64,000 nucleotides of DNA from Octopus sinensis (taxonomy: Eukaryota). The notes under the pieces are model-generated. The model made no database searches. It worked only from the letters and a program-made list of their open reading frames with translations, and had not been told where the DNA came from. The translations under genes and the position numbers were made by a program. The number at the start of each line of letters is the position of its first letter. The first letter of the stretch is position 1. Shown one piece after another: positions 9,646 to 56,028 of this stretch. The DNA lies in contig NC_043012.1 of the NCBI RefSeq assembly GCF_006345805.1, forward strand, positions 49,104,001 to 49,168,000. Direction: 5' to 3'.

Positions 9646-10892
9646 CAGGGGCTGGACAAAATAATGGAAACACCTAGCATCATAGCATCATAATTTTGTA
9701 AATATCTATAAAACCGTCAAAAGCTTGTTTATTTTTATGTTTTTTGATTTATTATAAGTGTTGCTTAATCTGTTTTGCTAAAATTGTTGTTTCTTTTCAG
9801 ACATCATCAGAAAAAGGTAATTAAAATTCCTCAAAATGACAGATCTATCAGACTTTCAAAGAGGACAAATTGTTGGTGCTTGTACGGCTGGCGCTAGCGT
9901 AACGAAAACAGCCGAAATGTTTGGTTTATTAAGAATTACTGTATCTAAAATAATGACAGCCTTTCAGAAAGTGGGGAAACCCTCCTCGGCGAAACAAAAC
10001 TCTGGAAGAAAACCAAAACTTTCAGAAGGGACTGTCGGACTATTACGTGAATTCTTAGAAAGAATCACAAAAGTACAGCTCCTAAAATTACTGCAGAGCT
10101 TAACGACCACCTCGAGAGTCCAGTTTCCACAAAAACTGTTCGCCGGGAGCTGCACACAGCCGGATTTCACGAGAGGGCTGCAATCAGAAAGCCACTTGTT
10201 TCAAAAACAAACGTTGCAAAGCGTTTAGAGTGGAGTAAAAACCTACAGAATTGGTCCCTAGAGCTGTGGAAGAATGTTAGTTTCTTGGACGAGTCATCCT
10301 TTACTTTATTTCCGACCACCGGCGGAATATACGTGTGGAGACAGTAAAAAGAAGCATTTCCCCCAGACTGCCTTCTTCCAACTTTTAAACATGGAGGAGG
10401 ATCTGTGATGATCTAGGGAGCTATATCTTGGAAATCCGCCGGCCCAATGGTTTCCCTTCATGGCAGAAGTAATAGTCAAGACTATTTAAGCATTTTATCT
10501 GATCAAATTCATCCTATGGTTGCGGAACTGTTTCCGGAGGGAAATACAACCTTTCAGGCTGATAATGCACCAATTCACACAGCTAAATTTGTTACTGAAT
10601 GGCACGAGGAACATCATAATGACGTTGAACACCTTATCTGGCCAGCACAGTCCCCAGATCTCACTATTATTGAACATTTATGGTGCATTTTAGAAAAACA
10701 ATTAAAGAGTCGATATTTACCTCCATCATCATTACAAGAACTGGAGACTGTTATAGTTGAAGAATGGACAAAAACTCATTTGGAAACAATTCAAACTTTG
10801 TACGAGTTCATACCTCGTAGAAGTCAAGCTGTAATTACTGCCAAATGCAGACCTACCTCAAATTAGAATAAATTTGTTTTAAATTTTAAGGT
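9646..10892 (+). mobile_element. Tc1/mariner transposon with DD36E spacing (Incomer-like), decayed, right TIR lost
   Basis: TA followed by CAGGGGCTGGACAAAATAATGGAAACACC; transposase 9836-10866; 3' end abuts a Penelope fragment. Confidence 0.9.
9836..10866 (+). pseudogene. Tc1-type transposase pseudogene
   Basis: MTDLSDFQRGQIVGA HTH N-terminus, GRKPKLS, FLDESSF, FQADNAPIH, WPAQSPDLTIIEHLW; frameshift near 10030 and internal stops. Confidence 0.92.
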
Positions 10893-10984: not shown

Positions 10985-11030
10985 AAAACAACGTTTCGGC
11001 TGATATACGCTCCAGGCTTCTTCAGGTGTC
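10985..11030 (-). ncRNA. Minimal hammerhead in a Penelope pseudo-LTR
   Basis: Minus: GACAC-CUGAAGA-a-GCCUG...CAGCC-GAAA-CGUU-GUUUU. Lies downstream of a GIY-YIG fragment; the paralog at ~21658-21690 shows GGCUG/CAGCC pairing. Confidence 0.7.
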
Positions 11031-13893: not shown

Positions 13894-14333
13894 GTTAAGT
13901 TAAGTTAAGTTAATTTTTTGGCTCAAAAAGCAAAAAGCAAGGCCATGTAGGGGGACATGGAGTTATGTACAGGGAGGGTGTTCATGCAAAGAGTTCAGGC
14001 CATTTCTGGTCAAGAGAGTCTTTGAACAAAGCGGTCGTCGGCATCCTCACTATCTCGTCCGGCAGCTTATTCCACGGATCCGCAACCCGGACTGAGAAAG
14101 CCCCTGTCCTTCGATTGAGATGAAATCGTCGCAGATAGAGCTTTTCGGAGTGACCCCGCAGCCGACGCTCTGGAGCAGGAGTGAAGAACAGCTCTTTCGA
14201 GAGGTTACACTTTCTGCTTATGATGTTGTGAGCGAGAATGAGATCACCACGGCGTCGTCGTTTTTCTAGAGAATAAAGGTCGAGCGTCTTCAGCCTTTCT
14301 TCATAAGACAAATGCTTGAGACCAAGAACCATG
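13894..14333 (-). mobile_element. CR1/L2-group LINE 3' end
   Basis: LSYEERLKTLDLYSLEKRRRRGDLI..LRGHSEKL..FSVRVADPWNKLP; short 3' UTR and (TTAAC)n tail. Confidence 0.9.
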
Positions 14334-15402
14334 CGGAAGATGATGCATAGATGTGGTGGTGATAGAAAGCAACTTTAAATTTAGTTCTAAAAAAATGTTT
14401 TTGGTAATCAAAAGGAAAAAAAAAAGAACCAAAATAATTTTATATCAACAGTTGTTGTTATGTTAATGTTGTTTTTATGTTGATGTAGTTGATTACTCAT
14501 CGGTTATTCCTCAGTGAGACACCAAGGATAAAAATCTTTCTCGCCAAAATCACCATGTCAGTCTGTCGGGTGTCGTATATCTTTAGTTCTTTAATCACCA
14601 TCATAGAGAAGCCATGACTATGAACTACTTTTAAGAACTACATTATCCAATGTGACTTTTTTCTCTTCAAGACTTGACAGTGTAAATTAAGGTAAATTTG
14701 GCTGCCATTTCTTGTAGGTCTAGCAACTACATGAAAGACTCTATCGATAAAATATATTTAAGAGATTTTGAAGCATAGTCAATGCTAAGTCAAGTGGGTG
14801 TTACTTAACTACAGCTTTGGAGGCCCTTCTGCATCTTGTCTACCATTAACATTTCAGTGATAGTCACTTAGAGTATGAAGTACATTTGCGTGCTCCTGCT
14901 GAGTTTAGAATTATTTTAAATGGTGATCTAAATTCGGTACAGGCGGCCCTTACACAGACGGTACATAAATGTGGCAAAGCAATTATGTTATGTAATTGAA
15001 AATCACCATATCCCACGTCCCAACAAGATCAACGTAATTAAAGAACACTACAAATTTGTTTCTTTGATCAAGAGGAGCAGTCTTGTTTTATACCACTGCA
15101 GACGCTCTATGTGGATAACCTCTTGATGCCCGTTATTTTTTTGGTGTATGTGATTATGAGAAGTGCAAGAAGTTTTTAGAGAGGATCATTGCCAGAGGTC
15201 TTCCACCTCCCTAGAAGATATGGACCATATTTCTGATGATTGGCAAAGTACAGAAGCTCTAAATACTTATGGAAACCTCCTTTAGACATGTGACTAAATT
15301 GATAAAAGTTAAAAAATGTCCTGTTTGTAGCCAACAAGTGTTTTGAACTTTTATGATACACTATTACATATTCTGTGGAAGTGAGTTTTGCAGCAGCTGT
15401 AT

Positions 15403-21594: not shown

Positions 21595-22555
21595 CATACA
21601 TACAGTTCTATATTTAAGAGATGAGGAATTATGTACATTATTTACATTATTTGTCCTCAACGTTTCGGCTGATATACCCTCCAGCCTTCTTGGGTTCTCA
21701 ATCCTAAGGTATATTTCGATGTTTGGAATCGAATTCGGAATCTTGGGGTTAGTAGCCCGTGCTCTTAACCACTACGCCACGGGAATAGTGTCTCGTGGAT
21801 AAGAATGGAGTGAATTTTAGGGTTTATAAATCTAATATTTTCCTATCCTTCCTTAATACCGGTTCCCATATGCTGTTCATATCTGCACTCGGTCTGCTTA
21901 GGAGGTTGTTGTGTCCTAGCATATGTGCTGCTTCTTTTAGTTTTCGACTTTTTCCAGTGGTGTTCTCTGTCTATTATTTTAACTTTATCTCACGGGGGCA
22001 GGTGCATACATGATCAGCTATACCCGATTTATCAATGTCTCCTCGTGTCACAGCTTTGCGATGTTCCTCTACCCTTATTTTGAGGGGGAGGCTTGTTTCG
22101 CCTTTGTTTAACCTACCACTGCTGCATGGAATGGAGTACACGCAGTCTTTGATCAAATTCCCTTCTATTGGTGGTTTTACTCGGAGATATTTACGAAGTG
22201 TTGTATTACTCTTGAATACTGTCCTGATGTCATATGGGCCGCATATCTTTTGTATCTTTTCGGAGAGGCCTTTCATATAGGGTAGACAGACTGTAGACAG
22301 TTTATTGGCCTCATCCTCGCTCTTCTTTATAATTGGAGTGGATAGTATACTTTTGGGGTAGTTGTTGCGTAATAGATCGTTATTGAGCTTGGTCATTTCT
22401 TCGTGGTGTGTATCACGATCACTACTTATATTATTTGCTCGATGTTTTAGGCACTGAGCAATCCCTCTCTTTACACTGTATGGATGGTGGGAGTTGTAGT
22501 TGAGGTATCGTCCAGTAAAGGTCGGCTTGTGGTATACAGATGTCCTGAATCCATA
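21595..22555 (-). mobile_element. Penelope-like element 3' fragment (RT C-terminus, GIY-YIG endonuclease, pseudo-LTR)
   Basis: ORF 21974-22396: LPYMKGLSEKIQK..VFKSNTTL..CVYSIPCSSGRLNKGETSLPLKIRVEEHRK..SGIADH; partial hammerhead near 21658-21690. Confidence 0.88.
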
Positions 22556-22911
22556 AATCCTCAGCTATACCAGATCTATCAATATCTCCTCGTTTCATAG
22601 TTTTGCACTCTACAAGCTTAATATCGTAGTCCAAAGTCCATAATTTATATGAACATTTGCCGAACACATTGGTGAAAAGTGCCTATGATTACCGTAAAGA
22701 ATTTTCTTCAGCAAGAAATGGAATGAACATCATGAATATACTCGACTACGCAATATGGACAACCTCGAAAACGGATATGTTCATTGCTAAAACTACCACC
22801 GCTCCCACCGCCACCTTCGTGGTCGTGGTGGTGGTCATCATCATCATCATCATCCTTTAGTGGTTCTTCTAACCCCCAGTCATCAAGCAGTATCATCCTT
22901 ACTTACTTACT

Positions 22912-44854: not shown

Positions 44855-44909
44855 GTCTTACAGCTGTTTCTAGAATATTAATTAATAATAATATCCCTTC
44901 ATCCGAGAC
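44855..44909 (-). ncRNA. Hammerhead-like motif (one core substitution)
   Basis: Minus: GUCU-CGGAUGA-a-GGGAUAUU...AAUAUUCU-a-GAAA-CAGCUG-UA-AGAC; palindromic stem III ACAGCUGU. Confidence 0.65.
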
Positions 44910-53333: not shown

Positions 53334-53467
53334 TATATATATATAACAATTTAGGAGTGACCCTAACAGGTCACTCGTCCACCAGAAAGAGCAGCCATAA
53401 CTCACACCGCCAAGTAGTAGTAATTCAGAAATTAGGTGAAAATTTAAAAACATTTACCCTAATTCAT

Positions 53468-53567
53468 CTTTTAGACGTTGCAACGTTTCTGTGTCATTAA
53501 TGATTAAATTAGCTTAATTAAATTAAATTAAGCTAATCTACCATAGGTTACACTTCATCAGTAAAAA
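53468..53567 (-). ncRNA. Type I hammerhead ribozyme, unit 1 (intact core)
   Basis: Minus strand reads UUUUUA-CUGAUGA-a-GUGU...ACAC-a-GAAA-CGUUGCAACG-UC-UAAAAG; stems I, II and III can all pair. Confidence 0.75.
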
Positions 53568-53940
53568 ACCTGGGAGAGACAAATATACACGAGGCGTCTG
53601 TATCGATGCCTACGGAATATCTGTCTTAAAATTTTCAAGACTGACGTATTCGCGCCAAACTTATCAGCAGTAAATATAAACTGCCGATTCAATCTCAGAA
53701 TTATTCAGAAAATTATCAATTAGTCAATTTAGGGTAGCAAAAAAATTCAATAGAAATTTATCGCTACCAGCGGCCTGGTGGAAAAGAGAAAATAGTCATC
53801 GACTAAATATATAAATATAACAATTTAGGAGTGACCCTAACAGGTCACTCGTCCACCAGAAAGAGCAGCCATAACTCACACCGCCAAGTAGTAGTAATTC
53901 AGAATTAGGTGAAAATTTAAAAACATTTACCCTAATTCAT

Positions 53941-54040
53941 CTTTTAGACGTTGCAACGTTTCTGTGTCATTAATGATTAAATTAGCTTAATTAAATTAAA
54001 TTAAGCTAATCTACCATAGGTTACACTTCATCAGTAAAAA
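53941..54040 (-). ncRNA. Type I hammerhead ribozyme, unit 2 (intact core)
   Basis: Same motif as unit 1. Confidence 0.75.
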
Positions 54041-54286
54041 ACCTGGGAGAGACAAATATACACGAGGCGTCTGTATCGATGCCTACGGAATATCTGTCTT
54101 AAAATTTTCAAGACTGACGTATTCAATTGACTAATTGATAATTTTCTGAATAATTCTGAGATTGAATCGGCAGTTTATATTTACTGCTGATAAGTTTGGC
54201 GCGAATACGTCAGTCTTGAAAATTTTAAGACAGATATTCCGTAGGCATCGATACAGACGCCTCGTGTATATTTGTCTCTCCCAGGT

Positions 54287-54385
54287 TTTTTACTGATGAA
54301 GTGTAACCTATGGTAGATTAGCTTAATTTAATTAATTAAGCTAATTTAATCATTAATGACACAGAAACGTTGCAACGTCTAAAAG
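54287..54385 (+). ncRNA. Type I hammerhead ribozyme, unit 3 (intact core)
   Basis: TTTTTA 54287-92, CTGATGA 54293-99, GAAA 54364-67, palindromic ACGTTGCAACGT, GTC 54377-79, TAAAAG 54380-85. Confidence 0.78.
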
Positions 54386-54759
54386 ATGAATTAGGGTAAA
54401 TGTTTTTAAATTTTCACCTAATTTCTGAATTACTACTACTTGGCGGTGTGAGTTATGGCTGCTCTTTCTGGTGGACGAGTGACCTGTTAGGGTCACTCCT
54501 AAATTGTTATATTTATATATTTAGTCGATGACTATTTTCTCTTTTCCACCAGGCCGCTGGTAGCGATAAATTTCTATTGAATTTTTTTGCTACCCTAAAT
54601 TGACTAATTGATAATTTTCTGAATAATTCTGAGATTGAATCGGCAGTTTATATTTACTGCTGATAAGTTTGGCGCGAATACGTCAGTCTTGAAAATTTTA
54701 AGACAGATATTCCGTAGGCATCGATACAGACGCCTCGTGTATATTTGTCTCTCCCAGGT

Positions 54760-54854
54760 TTTTTACTGATGTAACCTATGGTAGATTAGCTTAATTTAAT
54801 TTAATTAAGCTAATTTAATCATTAATGACACAGAAACGTTGCAACGTCTAAAAG
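54760..54854 (+). ncRNA. Hammerhead, unit 4, core disrupted by a 5-nt deletion
   Basis: Reads CTGATGTAACC where other units read CTGATGAAGTGTAACC. Confidence 0.65.
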
Positions 54855-55228
54855 ATGAATTAGGGTAAATGTTTTTAAATTTTCACCTAATTTCTGAATT
54901 ACTACTACTTGGCGGTGTGAGTTATGGCTGCTCTTTCTGGTGGACGAGTGACCTGTTAGGGTCACTCCTAAATTGTTATATTTATATATTTAGTCGATGA
55001 CTATTTTCTCTTTTCCACCAGGCCGCTGGTAGCGATGAATTTCTATTGAATTTTTTTGCTACCCTAAATTGACTAATTGATAATTTTCTGAATAATTCTG
55101 AGATTGAATCGGCAGTTTATATTTACTGCTGATAAGTTTGGCGCGAATACGTCAGTCTTGAAAATTTTAAGACAGATATTCCGTAGGCATCGATACAGAC
55201 GCCTCGTGTATATTTGTCTCTCCCAGGT

Positions 55229-55328
55229 TTTTTACTGATGAAGTGTAACCTATGGTAGATTAGCTTAATTTAATTTAATTAAGCTAATTTAATCATTAAT
55301 GACACAGAAACGTTGCAACGTCTAAAAG
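55229..55328 (+). ncRNA. Type I hammerhead ribozyme, unit 5 (intact core)
   Basis: CTGATGA 55235-41, GAAA 55307-10, GTC 55320-22, TAAAAG 55323-28. Confidence 0.78.
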
Positions 55329-55700
55329 ATGAATTAGGGTAAATGTTTTTAAATTTTCACCTAATTTCTGAATTACTACTACTTGGCGGTGTGAGTTATG
55401 GCTGCTCTTTCTGGTGGACGAGTGACCTGTTAGGGTCACTCCTAAATTGTTATATTTATATATTTAGTCGATGACTATTTTCTCTTTTACACCAGGCCGC
55501 TGGTAGCGATGAATTTCTATTGAATTTTTTTGCTACCCTAAATTGACTAATTGATAATTTTCTGAATAATTCTGAGATTGAATCGGCAGTTTATATTTAC
55601 TGCTGATAAGTTTGGCGCGAATACGTCAGTCTTGAAAATTTTAAGACAGATATTCCGTAGGCATCGATACAGACGCCTCGTGTATTTGTCTCTCCCAGGT

Positions 55701-55799
55701 TTTTTACTGATGAAGTGTAACCTATGGTAGATTAGCTTAATTTAATTTAATTAAGCTAATTTAATCATTAATGACACAGAACGTTGCAACGTCTAAAAG
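55701..55799 (+). ncRNA. Hammerhead, unit 6, GAAA reduced to GAA
   Basis: CTGATGA 55707-13 intact, but GACACAGAACGTT lacks one A (mutation or sequencing error). Confidence 0.6.
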
Positions 55800-56028
55800 A
55801 TGAATTAGGGTAAATGTTTTTAAATTTTCACCTAATTTCTGAATTACTACTACTTGGCGGTGTGAGTTATGGCTGCTCTTTCTGGTGGACGAGTGACCTG
55901 TTAGGGTCACTCCTAAATTGTTATATTTATATATTTAGTCGATGACTATTTTCTCTTTTCCACCAGGCCGCTGGTAGCGATGAATTTCTATTGAATTTTT
56001 TTGCTACCCTAAATTGACTAATATATAT

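Follow-up and report, generated by a model that had tools for sequence, protein, structure and literature searches.

A mismatch-closed type I hammerhead motif with a predicted stem II pseudoknot in a young non-coding repeat of Octopus sinensis

The window analysed here is the whole 64,000-nucleotide stretch of Octopus sinensis DNA (contig NC_043012.1, positions 49,104,001 to 49,168,000). Inside a (TA)n run it holds a six-unit tandem and inverted array, every unit of which carries a hammerhead motif (four intact, two damaged copies). The initial annotation had described one motif at 54293..54367, without noticing that it recurs six times; those coordinates omit stem III, the GUC and stem I, and the motif runs beyond them. 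The stretch 54293-54379 is a complete type I hammerhead motif closed by a mismatch, with A·A at 10.1/11.1. The features are as follows, with the evidence in brackets.

53341..56021, both strands: whole insertion, two units on the minus strand set back to back with four on the plus strand (both flanks (TA)n)
53474..53561, minus strand: intact ribozyme copy (sequence)
53947..54034, minus strand: intact ribozyme copy (sequence)
54283..54287, plus strand: 5' strand of the predicted pseudoknot, AGGUU, immediately 5' of stem I (duplex energy, alignment)
54288..54292, plus strand: stem I, 5' strand UUUUA (98.7% of cells paired; two-sided change in three of five pairs)
54293..54299, plus strand: core C3-A9, CUGAUGA (sequence)
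54300..54300, plus strand: A10.1, facing A11.1 (sequence, family copies, superfamily clusters)
54301..54304, plus strand: proximal stem II, 5' strand GUGU, partner 54359-54362 (fold, alignment)
54305..54309, plus strand: 5' side of the internal loop, AACCU, also the 3' strand of the predicted pseudoknot (duplex energy, alignment)
54310..54353, plus strand: distal stem II hairpin, about 18 bp here and about 7-10 bp in older lineages (99.6% paired)
54354..54363, plus strand: internal loop, 3' side, then ACAC as the 3' strand of proximal stem II, then A11.1 (54363) (sequence)
54364..54379, plus strand: GAAA, 12-nt palindromic stem III and GUC, with the predicted cut after C17 at 54379 (sequence)
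54367..54378, plus strand: stem III, ACGUUGCAACGU (sequence)
54380..54384, plus strand: stem I, 3' strand UAAAA (sequence, covariation)
54498..54508, plus strand: end motif A, CCTAAATTG 3' of a hairpin, one of two fixed 3' insertion ends (left arm of the array)
54594..54606, plus strand: end motif B, CCTAAATTG 3' of a hairpin, 96 nt downstream of A (right arm of the array)
54766..54848, plus strand: damaged ribozyme copy, core with a 5-nt deletion (sequence)
55235..55322, plus strand: second intact plus-strand ribozyme copy (sequence)
55707..55793, plus strand: damaged ribozyme copy, GAAA one A short (sequence)

The ends of the insertion (53341 and 56021) are uncertain by a few bases within the TA runs. 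The unit, of 469-474 bp, is non-coding, the longest ATG open reading frame having 43 aa, and its predicted circle folds far better than shuffled sequences (z −7.3). Elsewhere in the window lie what we take to be fragments of a Tc1/mariner transposase (9821-10866, plus strand), of a LINE C-terminus (13982-14374, minus strand) and of the RT-thumb and GIY-YIG region of Penelope/Poseidon (21974-22564, minus strand).

The positions C3-A9, G12-A14, A15.1-U16.1 and H17 follow one another at 54293-54379 in the type I order, and the three helices are backed by covariation, in the alignment and among the clusters described below. A base pair at 10.1-11.1 belongs to the usual hammerhead consensus, with known natural exceptions; this pair is absent here, which makes the motif a variant and not a canonical member of the type I hammerheads. 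The letters had been described correctly, i.e. CUGAUGA (54293-54299), A (54300), GUGU (54301-04) facing ACAC (54359-62), A (54363) and GAAA (54364-67), and the extended stem II of about 64 nt is indeed present, 64 nt being counted between A9 and G12. The fold of the motif has a z-score of −3.3. A descriptor scan of 654 kb, covering the window and 59 genome stretches, gave 21 matches, while the reversed sequence and three shuffles gave 0; nine of the matches have a 1x1 mismatch, eight a 5' bulge and one a 3' bulge, and three are canonical.

With Rfam, no hammerhead match was obtained in the window at E<=1, nor at the locus at E<=10, and the gathering threshold of Hammerhead_1 was not reached. 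Among eight relatives only one (L209) obtained a score, of 18 bits compared with a threshold of 34. As Rfam is silent and, in the part of their report available to us, Perreault et al. (2011, PMC3088659) rejected search matches with 10.1-11.1 mispairs, the expectation that standard searches would miss an A·A hammerhead was correct. The reason proposed for it, the A·A core, is not supported: relatives closed by G-C or G·U are likewise missed by Rfam, so that the long stem II suffices to hide the motif.

The family is dispersed over many contigs of the genome and has been recently mobile, with at least 244 matches at 95-100% identity in the 40 best of 1,118 candidates; the 40 family loci are those among the matches listed, and three of them are one insertion present on three contigs. 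A·A together with an intact GAAA was found in 148 of the 175 anchored family copies and A·A is present in all 40 loci. The other copies have A·C (14/175, all at one locus) or small indels and other changes (13/175), and none has G-C. A canonical closing pair in the family consensus, which the initial annotation had named as speaking against its reading, was thus looked for and is absent, the consensus being A·A.

The position was then compared across a wider superfamily, defined by a pattern made of the core and a conserved downstream motif, with 5,208 genome matches versus 1 in the control; 600 of the 5,208 have a stem II of 36-52 nt. The loci in hand comprise 172 distinct superfamily sequences in 38 clusters, of which five with a 3' bulge were left out. 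In the remaining 33 clusters, 10.1-11.1 is A·A in 14 (five of these being derivatives of the 54293 family), A-U in 11, A·C in three, G·U in three and G-C in two. Standard pairing is present at 10.1-11.1 in 16 of the 33 clusters, compared with 31, 32 and 32 at 10.2, 10.3 and 10.4, with many pair types. On a tree of the 33 rows built with the closing-pair columns excluded, the position requires 14 state changes, and A·A needs at least five. The nearest sister (L221) has an identical GUGU/ACAC stem closed by A-U.

These alignments indicate that A·A replaces the closing pair and that 10.1/11.1 is labile. A·A is placed at the 10.1-11.1 pair because the G-C relatives have a proximal stem of equal length; the same observation rules out two separate insertions around a kept G10.1-C11.1, as does the base adjoining the mismatch, which is U or A in many lineages. 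A sheared A·A pair exchangeable with A·G found no support in the superfamily, where the partner is A, U or C; A·G closure was observed only in the 44855 family described below. A first genome pattern for A·A, badly spaced, gave 2 matches versus 2 in the control. Some superfamily lineages (L225, L226, L263, L265, L281-L289) carry, besides A-U closure, one bulged A on the 3' strand between 11.1 and G12, and in L228 a one-base slip of the 5' strand yields A·A, while the distance of the pseudoknot strand from the core is unchanged.

Three other hammerheads of the window had been compared with this motif. The one at 44855-44909, on the minus strand, had been described as unrelated and with the same A·A closure, and both statements stand (A·A in 30 of 31 copies); its CGGAUGA core is a private change. 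Its family (L031-L060, L069) is abundant, with 2,276 candidates; the consensus core, CCGAUGA (U4C), is present in 26 of 32 copies, closure is by A·A or A·G, stem II is plain and of 7-8 bp, and stem III is an 8-nt palindrome. The copies have about 1 kb of common non-coding sequence upstream, and no partner ORF was found for them; a Neptune-like ORF beside one copy was a chance neighbour (1 of 30 loci). The motifs at 2839-2876 and 10985-11030 do have the extra A that had been reported, on the 5' side only and with minimal stems III. It is a different feature, the published bulge of Penelope-like elements (PLEs), in which a conserved extra base after A9 lies over a kept G10.1-C11.1 (Cervera & De la Peña 2014, PMC4209133, in the part available). 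The 2839 and 10985 families belong to the PLE min-HHR type, with an unpaired base only between 9 and 10.1, and the 54293 motif does not. The core at 2844 (plus strand) reads CUGUUGA and not CUGANGA; this change (A6U) occurs in four copies of its minimal family (L076, L082, L109, L075, L122), other copies having CUGUAGA or CUGCAGA, although A6 is normally conserved. In L082 (−7082) and L122 (4459, 4381), hammerheads with a U3-A8 core swap were observed, one of them closed by U·U. The recurrent core variant proposed initially is thus upheld in that separate lineages, and the unrelated 44855 family too, have A·A, but it is one state of a labile position and not a defined variant.

The long stem II has the claimed length and an organisation that had not been seen, built around an internal loop able to form a pseudoknot. 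In the lineages examined, a proximal helix of 3-6 bp is followed by an internal loop, above which stands a distal hairpin of about 7-19 bp, and the AACCU of the internal loop (54305-09) is complementary to AGGUU (54283-87), the five bases upstream of stem I. In an alignment of 15 long-stem sequences (A1), 95.7% of cells are paired and two-sided changes occur in 12 pairs. Its covariation score was reached by 0 of 500 shuffles, a control that ignores relatedness, and controls with slid strands pair in 24-48% of cells. The four central pairs of the pseudoknot are standard in 59 of 60 cells of A1 and show the two-sided exchanges G-C/A-U and C-G/U-A; the two outer ones are open in most cells, giving 77% over the six pairs.

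Among the 38 clusters, the three core pseudoknot pairs form in 29, with the best of seven registers chosen. The nine misses comprise five copies with an upstream flank replaced at a junction, one mis-anchored row and three single mismatches. In 22 lineages, the duplex between the upstream strand and the loop has a mean energy of −5.6 kcal/mol, compared with −3.6 kcal/mol for 200 shuffled loops, none of which attains the cognate value, and −2.4 kcal/mol for the upstream strand with the other side of the loop. Cognate pairs exceed non-cognate ones by a small margin (p 0.044 and 0.012, 22 related lineages), because GG/CC hardly varies. The data thus comprise at least four covariation-supported pairs joining a stem II loop to the stem I region, as in pseudoknot-stabilised hammerheads, together with a modest cognate test.

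Therefore, energies and alignment strongly suggest that AGGUU/AACCU forms a pseudoknot. By analogy with other hammerheads, in which stem I/II pseudoknots brace about 40% of cases and were required for rapid cleavage in the cases tested (Perreault et al. 2011, PMC3088659, available part), it would brace the fold, and it may be the cause of the relaxed closing pair. It is not required for A·A to persist, because the 44855 family keeps A·A with a plain stem; by inspection, no pseudoknot partner is visible in that family. The predicted pseudoknot within the long stem is more informative than A·A itself.

Stem III is a perfect palindrome in 35 of 38 clusters. It is weak as a hairpin (−0.9 kcal/mol) and strong as a self-dimer (−17.9 kcal/mol), so that cleavage would likely take place between neighbouring units. 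Arm starts at the cut were counted. Of the 56 arm starts in the 40 family loci, 4 fall within 10 nt of the cut for 2.5 expected, i.e. no enrichment. In the sister families closed by A-U and A·C, 75 matches for copies beginning at the cut were obtained, compared with 11 at the control position. Inspection of 30 of the sister matches gave 13 cut-site arm starts, 2 deletions ending there, 4 nearby microhomology switches and 11 small indels, and 9 of the 11 control matches are arm starts. With 8 more judged from four letters, the sister families have at least 21 cut-site arm starts versus 9 (p 0.02). The 54293 clade has 16 matches, 6 of which are arm starts, against at most 1 of 6 controls. Classification was from four upstream letters only for 45 of the 75 sister matches and for all 6 control matches of the 54293 clade.

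Pooled, arm starts at the cut number 27 versus 10 (p 0.004, about 2.5-fold), an enrichment that rests on one control position per clade. Strict A·A copies provide only 2 of the 6 cut-site starts of the clade, both blurred by a 2-nt microhomology. This enrichment gives indirect support for cleavage after C17; it could also come from stalling of the reverse transcriptase at the palindrome or from microhomology or complementarity in stem I. One-base insertions at the cut were considered as a ligation scar and rejected: the 54293 clade has 8 for about 1.5 expected, the sister families about 9 versus 8 (background), the copies are noisy round the palindrome, and a deletion starting at the cut is found in one array only. 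In a distinct array of at least 12 units (G000:C13:24734568-24739519), with a period of about 290 nt, each unit begins at the predicted cut of a sister family; it may be a shortened derivative without the ribozyme.

Variants private to a locus are common to all covering units in 8 of 17 cases and unfixed in their array in 9 of 17. In one array, the five bases after C17 are missing from all three ribozyme copies, in both arms. The fixed private variants and this shared deletion fit repeated copying of one template, while the nine unfixed variants fit it less well. Along the 12-unit arm of locus L125, three variants repeat with a 4-unit period, which may reflect a multimeric template or a later duplication.

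The unit was also matched in assembled contigs of seven runs (X7, X11, X12, X16-X19) under five organism labels; the runs are not recorded as RNA. Contigs of X11 and X12 carry the A-U closure of a sister subfamily and a compensated stem III, and the family is probably shared by related species. At the loose end of a low-depth contig of X11, corresponding to 55205-55305 of the window, nearly every A reads G across GAAA, stem III and stem I. This pattern, from a single contig of another organism label, is what A-to-I hyper-editing of double-stranded RNA would be expected to leave. RNA of that kind would arise from inverted arrays, and editing there would destroy the hammerhead core.

The insertions have two fixed ends. 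All the arms of the 40 loci end 3' at A or B, with scattered 5' ends, and 31 of the 33 inverted loci, or 29 of 31 once duplicates are removed, combine one A end with one B end. A microsatellite target, 5' truncation and inversion, and a tail at one end are thus all present, as expected of PLE mobilisation. According to Craig et al. (2021, PMC8557442), EN+ PLEs of the Neptune/Naiad type favour (TA)n targets and are 5'-truncated, with an inverted copy at the 5' end and a tail at only one end, and an anole PLE uses two internal reverse-transcription start sites (Frangieh et al. 2024, PMC11167929), as given in the available parts of these reports. The two fixed ends in inverted loci match a PLE tail and two such start sites, which points to a Penelope-type signature. 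The repeat differs from these elements in that it encodes no protein, its tail has 96 nt compared with 30-40, and its arms reach 8 + 10 whole units.

A family of RT-GIY-YIG elements with a CxxC linker in this genome has the same (TA)n target and two-end pattern as the repeat, with 17,667 candidates (loci L298-L327 and L328:2104-4518) and two 3' ends about 40 nt apart; the frame in L328 has 804 aa, with Pfam RVT_1 just over the cut-off. From its motifs, we take this family to be Neptune. Its copies have no canonical hammerhead, and the 3' UTR contains a GAAAC-palindrome-GUC stretch. It has no sequence in common with the unit. An autonomous partner sharing sequence with the repeat was searched for and not found, and no PLE ORF adjoins any of the 40 family arrays; the flanking RT-GIY-YIG ORF of an autonomous PLE or pseudo-LTR is thus missing. 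A same-strand pair 3.4 kb apart, considered as a possible partner, turned out to be a segmental duplication. At L278:2936-9001, a tandem and inverted repeat of about 560 nt with end hairpins lies in (TA)n and adjoins a superfamily copy.

With regard to known systems, the repeat is a short non-coding tandem repeat, dispersed and recently mobile, with a type I hammerhead in consecutive units and without LTR, PBS or ORF. It resembles in this the metazoan non-LTR retrozymes (PMC7229834; Li et al., bioRxiv 10.64898/2026.07.22.740005, available parts), which have non-coding tandem units with one type I hammerhead each, low GC, a highly self-paired predicted circle and a link to PLEs. The unit here has 474 nt compared with the 170-400 reported, and stem II has 40-69 nt with a predicted internal-loop pseudoknot where metazoan retrozymes have loop1-loop2 contacts; most of the arrays, known here from DNA sequence, are inverted and have two fixed ends within (TA)n, unlike those of metazoan retrozymes. 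On these sequence features, the repeat appears to work like a metazoan non-LTR retrozyme.

The PLE pseudo-LTR hammerheads (PMC4209133, available part) are alike in being of type I with a short stem I, a palindromic dimer stem III and an extra purine after A9, and a D. willistoni PLE family forms 450-bp tandem repeats. Their helix II has 7-8 bp with the 5' bulge, whereas here A replaces 10.1, no ORF is present and a pseudoknot is predicted. In the pseudoknot-stabilised hammerheads (PMC3088659; Zhan et al. 2024, PMC11300833, available parts), stem II loop/stem I pairing likewise takes the place of loop-loop contacts. The published partner is a terminal loop or a tail; here, in a repeat of a eukaryote, the partner would be one strand of an internal loop topped by a further helix. 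Part of that pseudoknot analysis excluded the highly repetitive type I hammerheads (Fig. S4 legend; PMC3088659/PMC11300833).

Mismatched closure has precedents as well. In axolotl HHR_Amex2, a U·U mismatch closes helix II at its base (Cervera & De la Peña 2020, PMC7229834), and a natural U10.1·U11.1 mismatch and very weak stems II were reported (PMC3088659, PMC11300833), in the portions available. The novelty of A·A is reduced by what appears to be a published PLE example. In Fig. S3 of PMC4209133, one of 56 rows, row 29, has AGAAA (machine-read PDF, column order assumed). By row order, this appears to be the PLE of the Cotesia congregata bracovirus, in which the 5' A is present as well, and A·A would have been drawn there without comment in the available text. 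Our literature search found neither a description of an A10.1·A11.1 family nor an internal-loop pseudoknot in a retrozyme, and the supplements of PMC7229834 and PMC4209133 (file 1) may show such variants; the available part of PMC9901934 has nothing on 10.1/11.1. Precedent thus exists singly for mismatch closure, the pseudoknot brace, the dimer stem III, the chemistry and the element class.

The sequence evidence supports a real, selected hammerhead fold in a young PLE-type retrozyme. We consider it probable that the motif lies in a young non-coding repeat mobilised by a Penelope-type element, with A·A tolerated through the predicted pseudoknot brace, in the following mechanism. The core, stem I, the proximal and distal stem II and the palindromic stem III are kept by compensating changes, as sequence and covariation show, and 10.1/11.1 is not. 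The internal loop, 4-5 bp above the core, very likely pairs with the strand upstream of stem I, and this pseudoknot would substitute for the usual loop1-loop2 contact while the distal hairpin caps the internal loop. Neighbouring units would then cleave as a dimer, freeing 474-nt monomers that a host ligase would circularise. As the anatomy of the insertions suggests, a PLE reverse transcriptase/GIY-YIG protein acting in trans would nick (TA)n and prime at two internal sites 96 nt apart, one per target strand, and run-through over several unit lengths would yield the back-to-back tandem arms.

The ribozyme may also be active without the pseudoknot being behind the mismatch, 10.1/11.1 drifting since PLE-type hammerheads need only slow cleavage, or being compensated by the 12-bp dimer stem III or a protein. 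The unrelated 44855 family, A·A in 30 of 31 copies over a plain stem II, agrees with such drift, as do the apparent A·A of the Cotesia bracovirus PLE hammerhead with its short stem II, the poor in vitro cleavage of PLE min-HHRs (both PMC4209133, available part) and the natural U·U closures (PMC7229834, PMC3088659). We nevertheless regard it as unlikely: in the alignment of 56 PLE hammerheads the 10.1-11.1 pair is called highly conserved (PMC4209133), against standard pairing in 16 of the 33 superfamily clusters. It is more doubtful still that the A·A lineages are folded but catalytically weak or dead, with the structure kept for reverse-transcriptase or template recognition or for RNA stability, and the arrays derived from multimeric read-through transcripts. 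Core letters and a compensated palindromic stem III are kept across deep lineages, although the search pattern itself required the core; A·A lineages were amplified repeatedly and recently, at 95-100% identity; and cut-site arm starts exist, one array having a deletion that begins exactly at the cut in all three copies. In favour of a weak or dead ribozyme are the absence of enrichment of such starts in the 40 family loci, the variants polymorphic within arrays, one set of which has a 4-unit period (L125), and the lizard PLE PAc, whose insertion in vitro proceeded without hammerhead cleavage (PMC11167929, available part).

A further reading, in which the repeat would be no separate retrozyme but an autonomous PLE pseudo-LTR, or else a satellite or foldback element at the DNA level, is largely refuted and seems to us very improbable. 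PLE pseudo-LTRs do bear hammerheads and form partial tandems and inversions (PMC4209133, PMC8557442, available parts), but homology among the short-stem relatives compared stops no more than about 460 nt from the ribozyme and carries over into the next unit, and no PLE ORF adjoins a family array. The fixed 3' and variable 5' ends fit target-primed reverse transcription and not DNA transposition. The Penelope-mobilised retrozyme with a pseudoknot-braced hammerhead is thus the reading we retain.

More tentatively, and somewhat beyond what we would hold to be likely, in thousands of animal retrozymes a helix-capped internal-loop pseudoknot of stem II might free 10.1-11.1, allowing every form (G-C, G·U, A-U, A·C, A·A or bulged) to cleave and to spread, their insertions recording a PLE reverse-transcriptase dimer that primes both target strands at sites 96 nt apart on one circular RNA. 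If the motifs cleave, they would constitute a natural allelic series (G-C, G·U, A-U, A·C, A·A, bulge) at the most conserved stem position of the hammerhead in one homologous background, and thereby a direct test of whether a tertiary brace can replace the closing pair. With more than 5,000 copies in the O. sinensis genome, animal hammerheads would be undercounted by descriptor and Rfam searches. Finally, the near-fixed pairing of two ends in inverted insertions may serve as a genomic readout of priming by PLE proteins, a process that is poorly understood.
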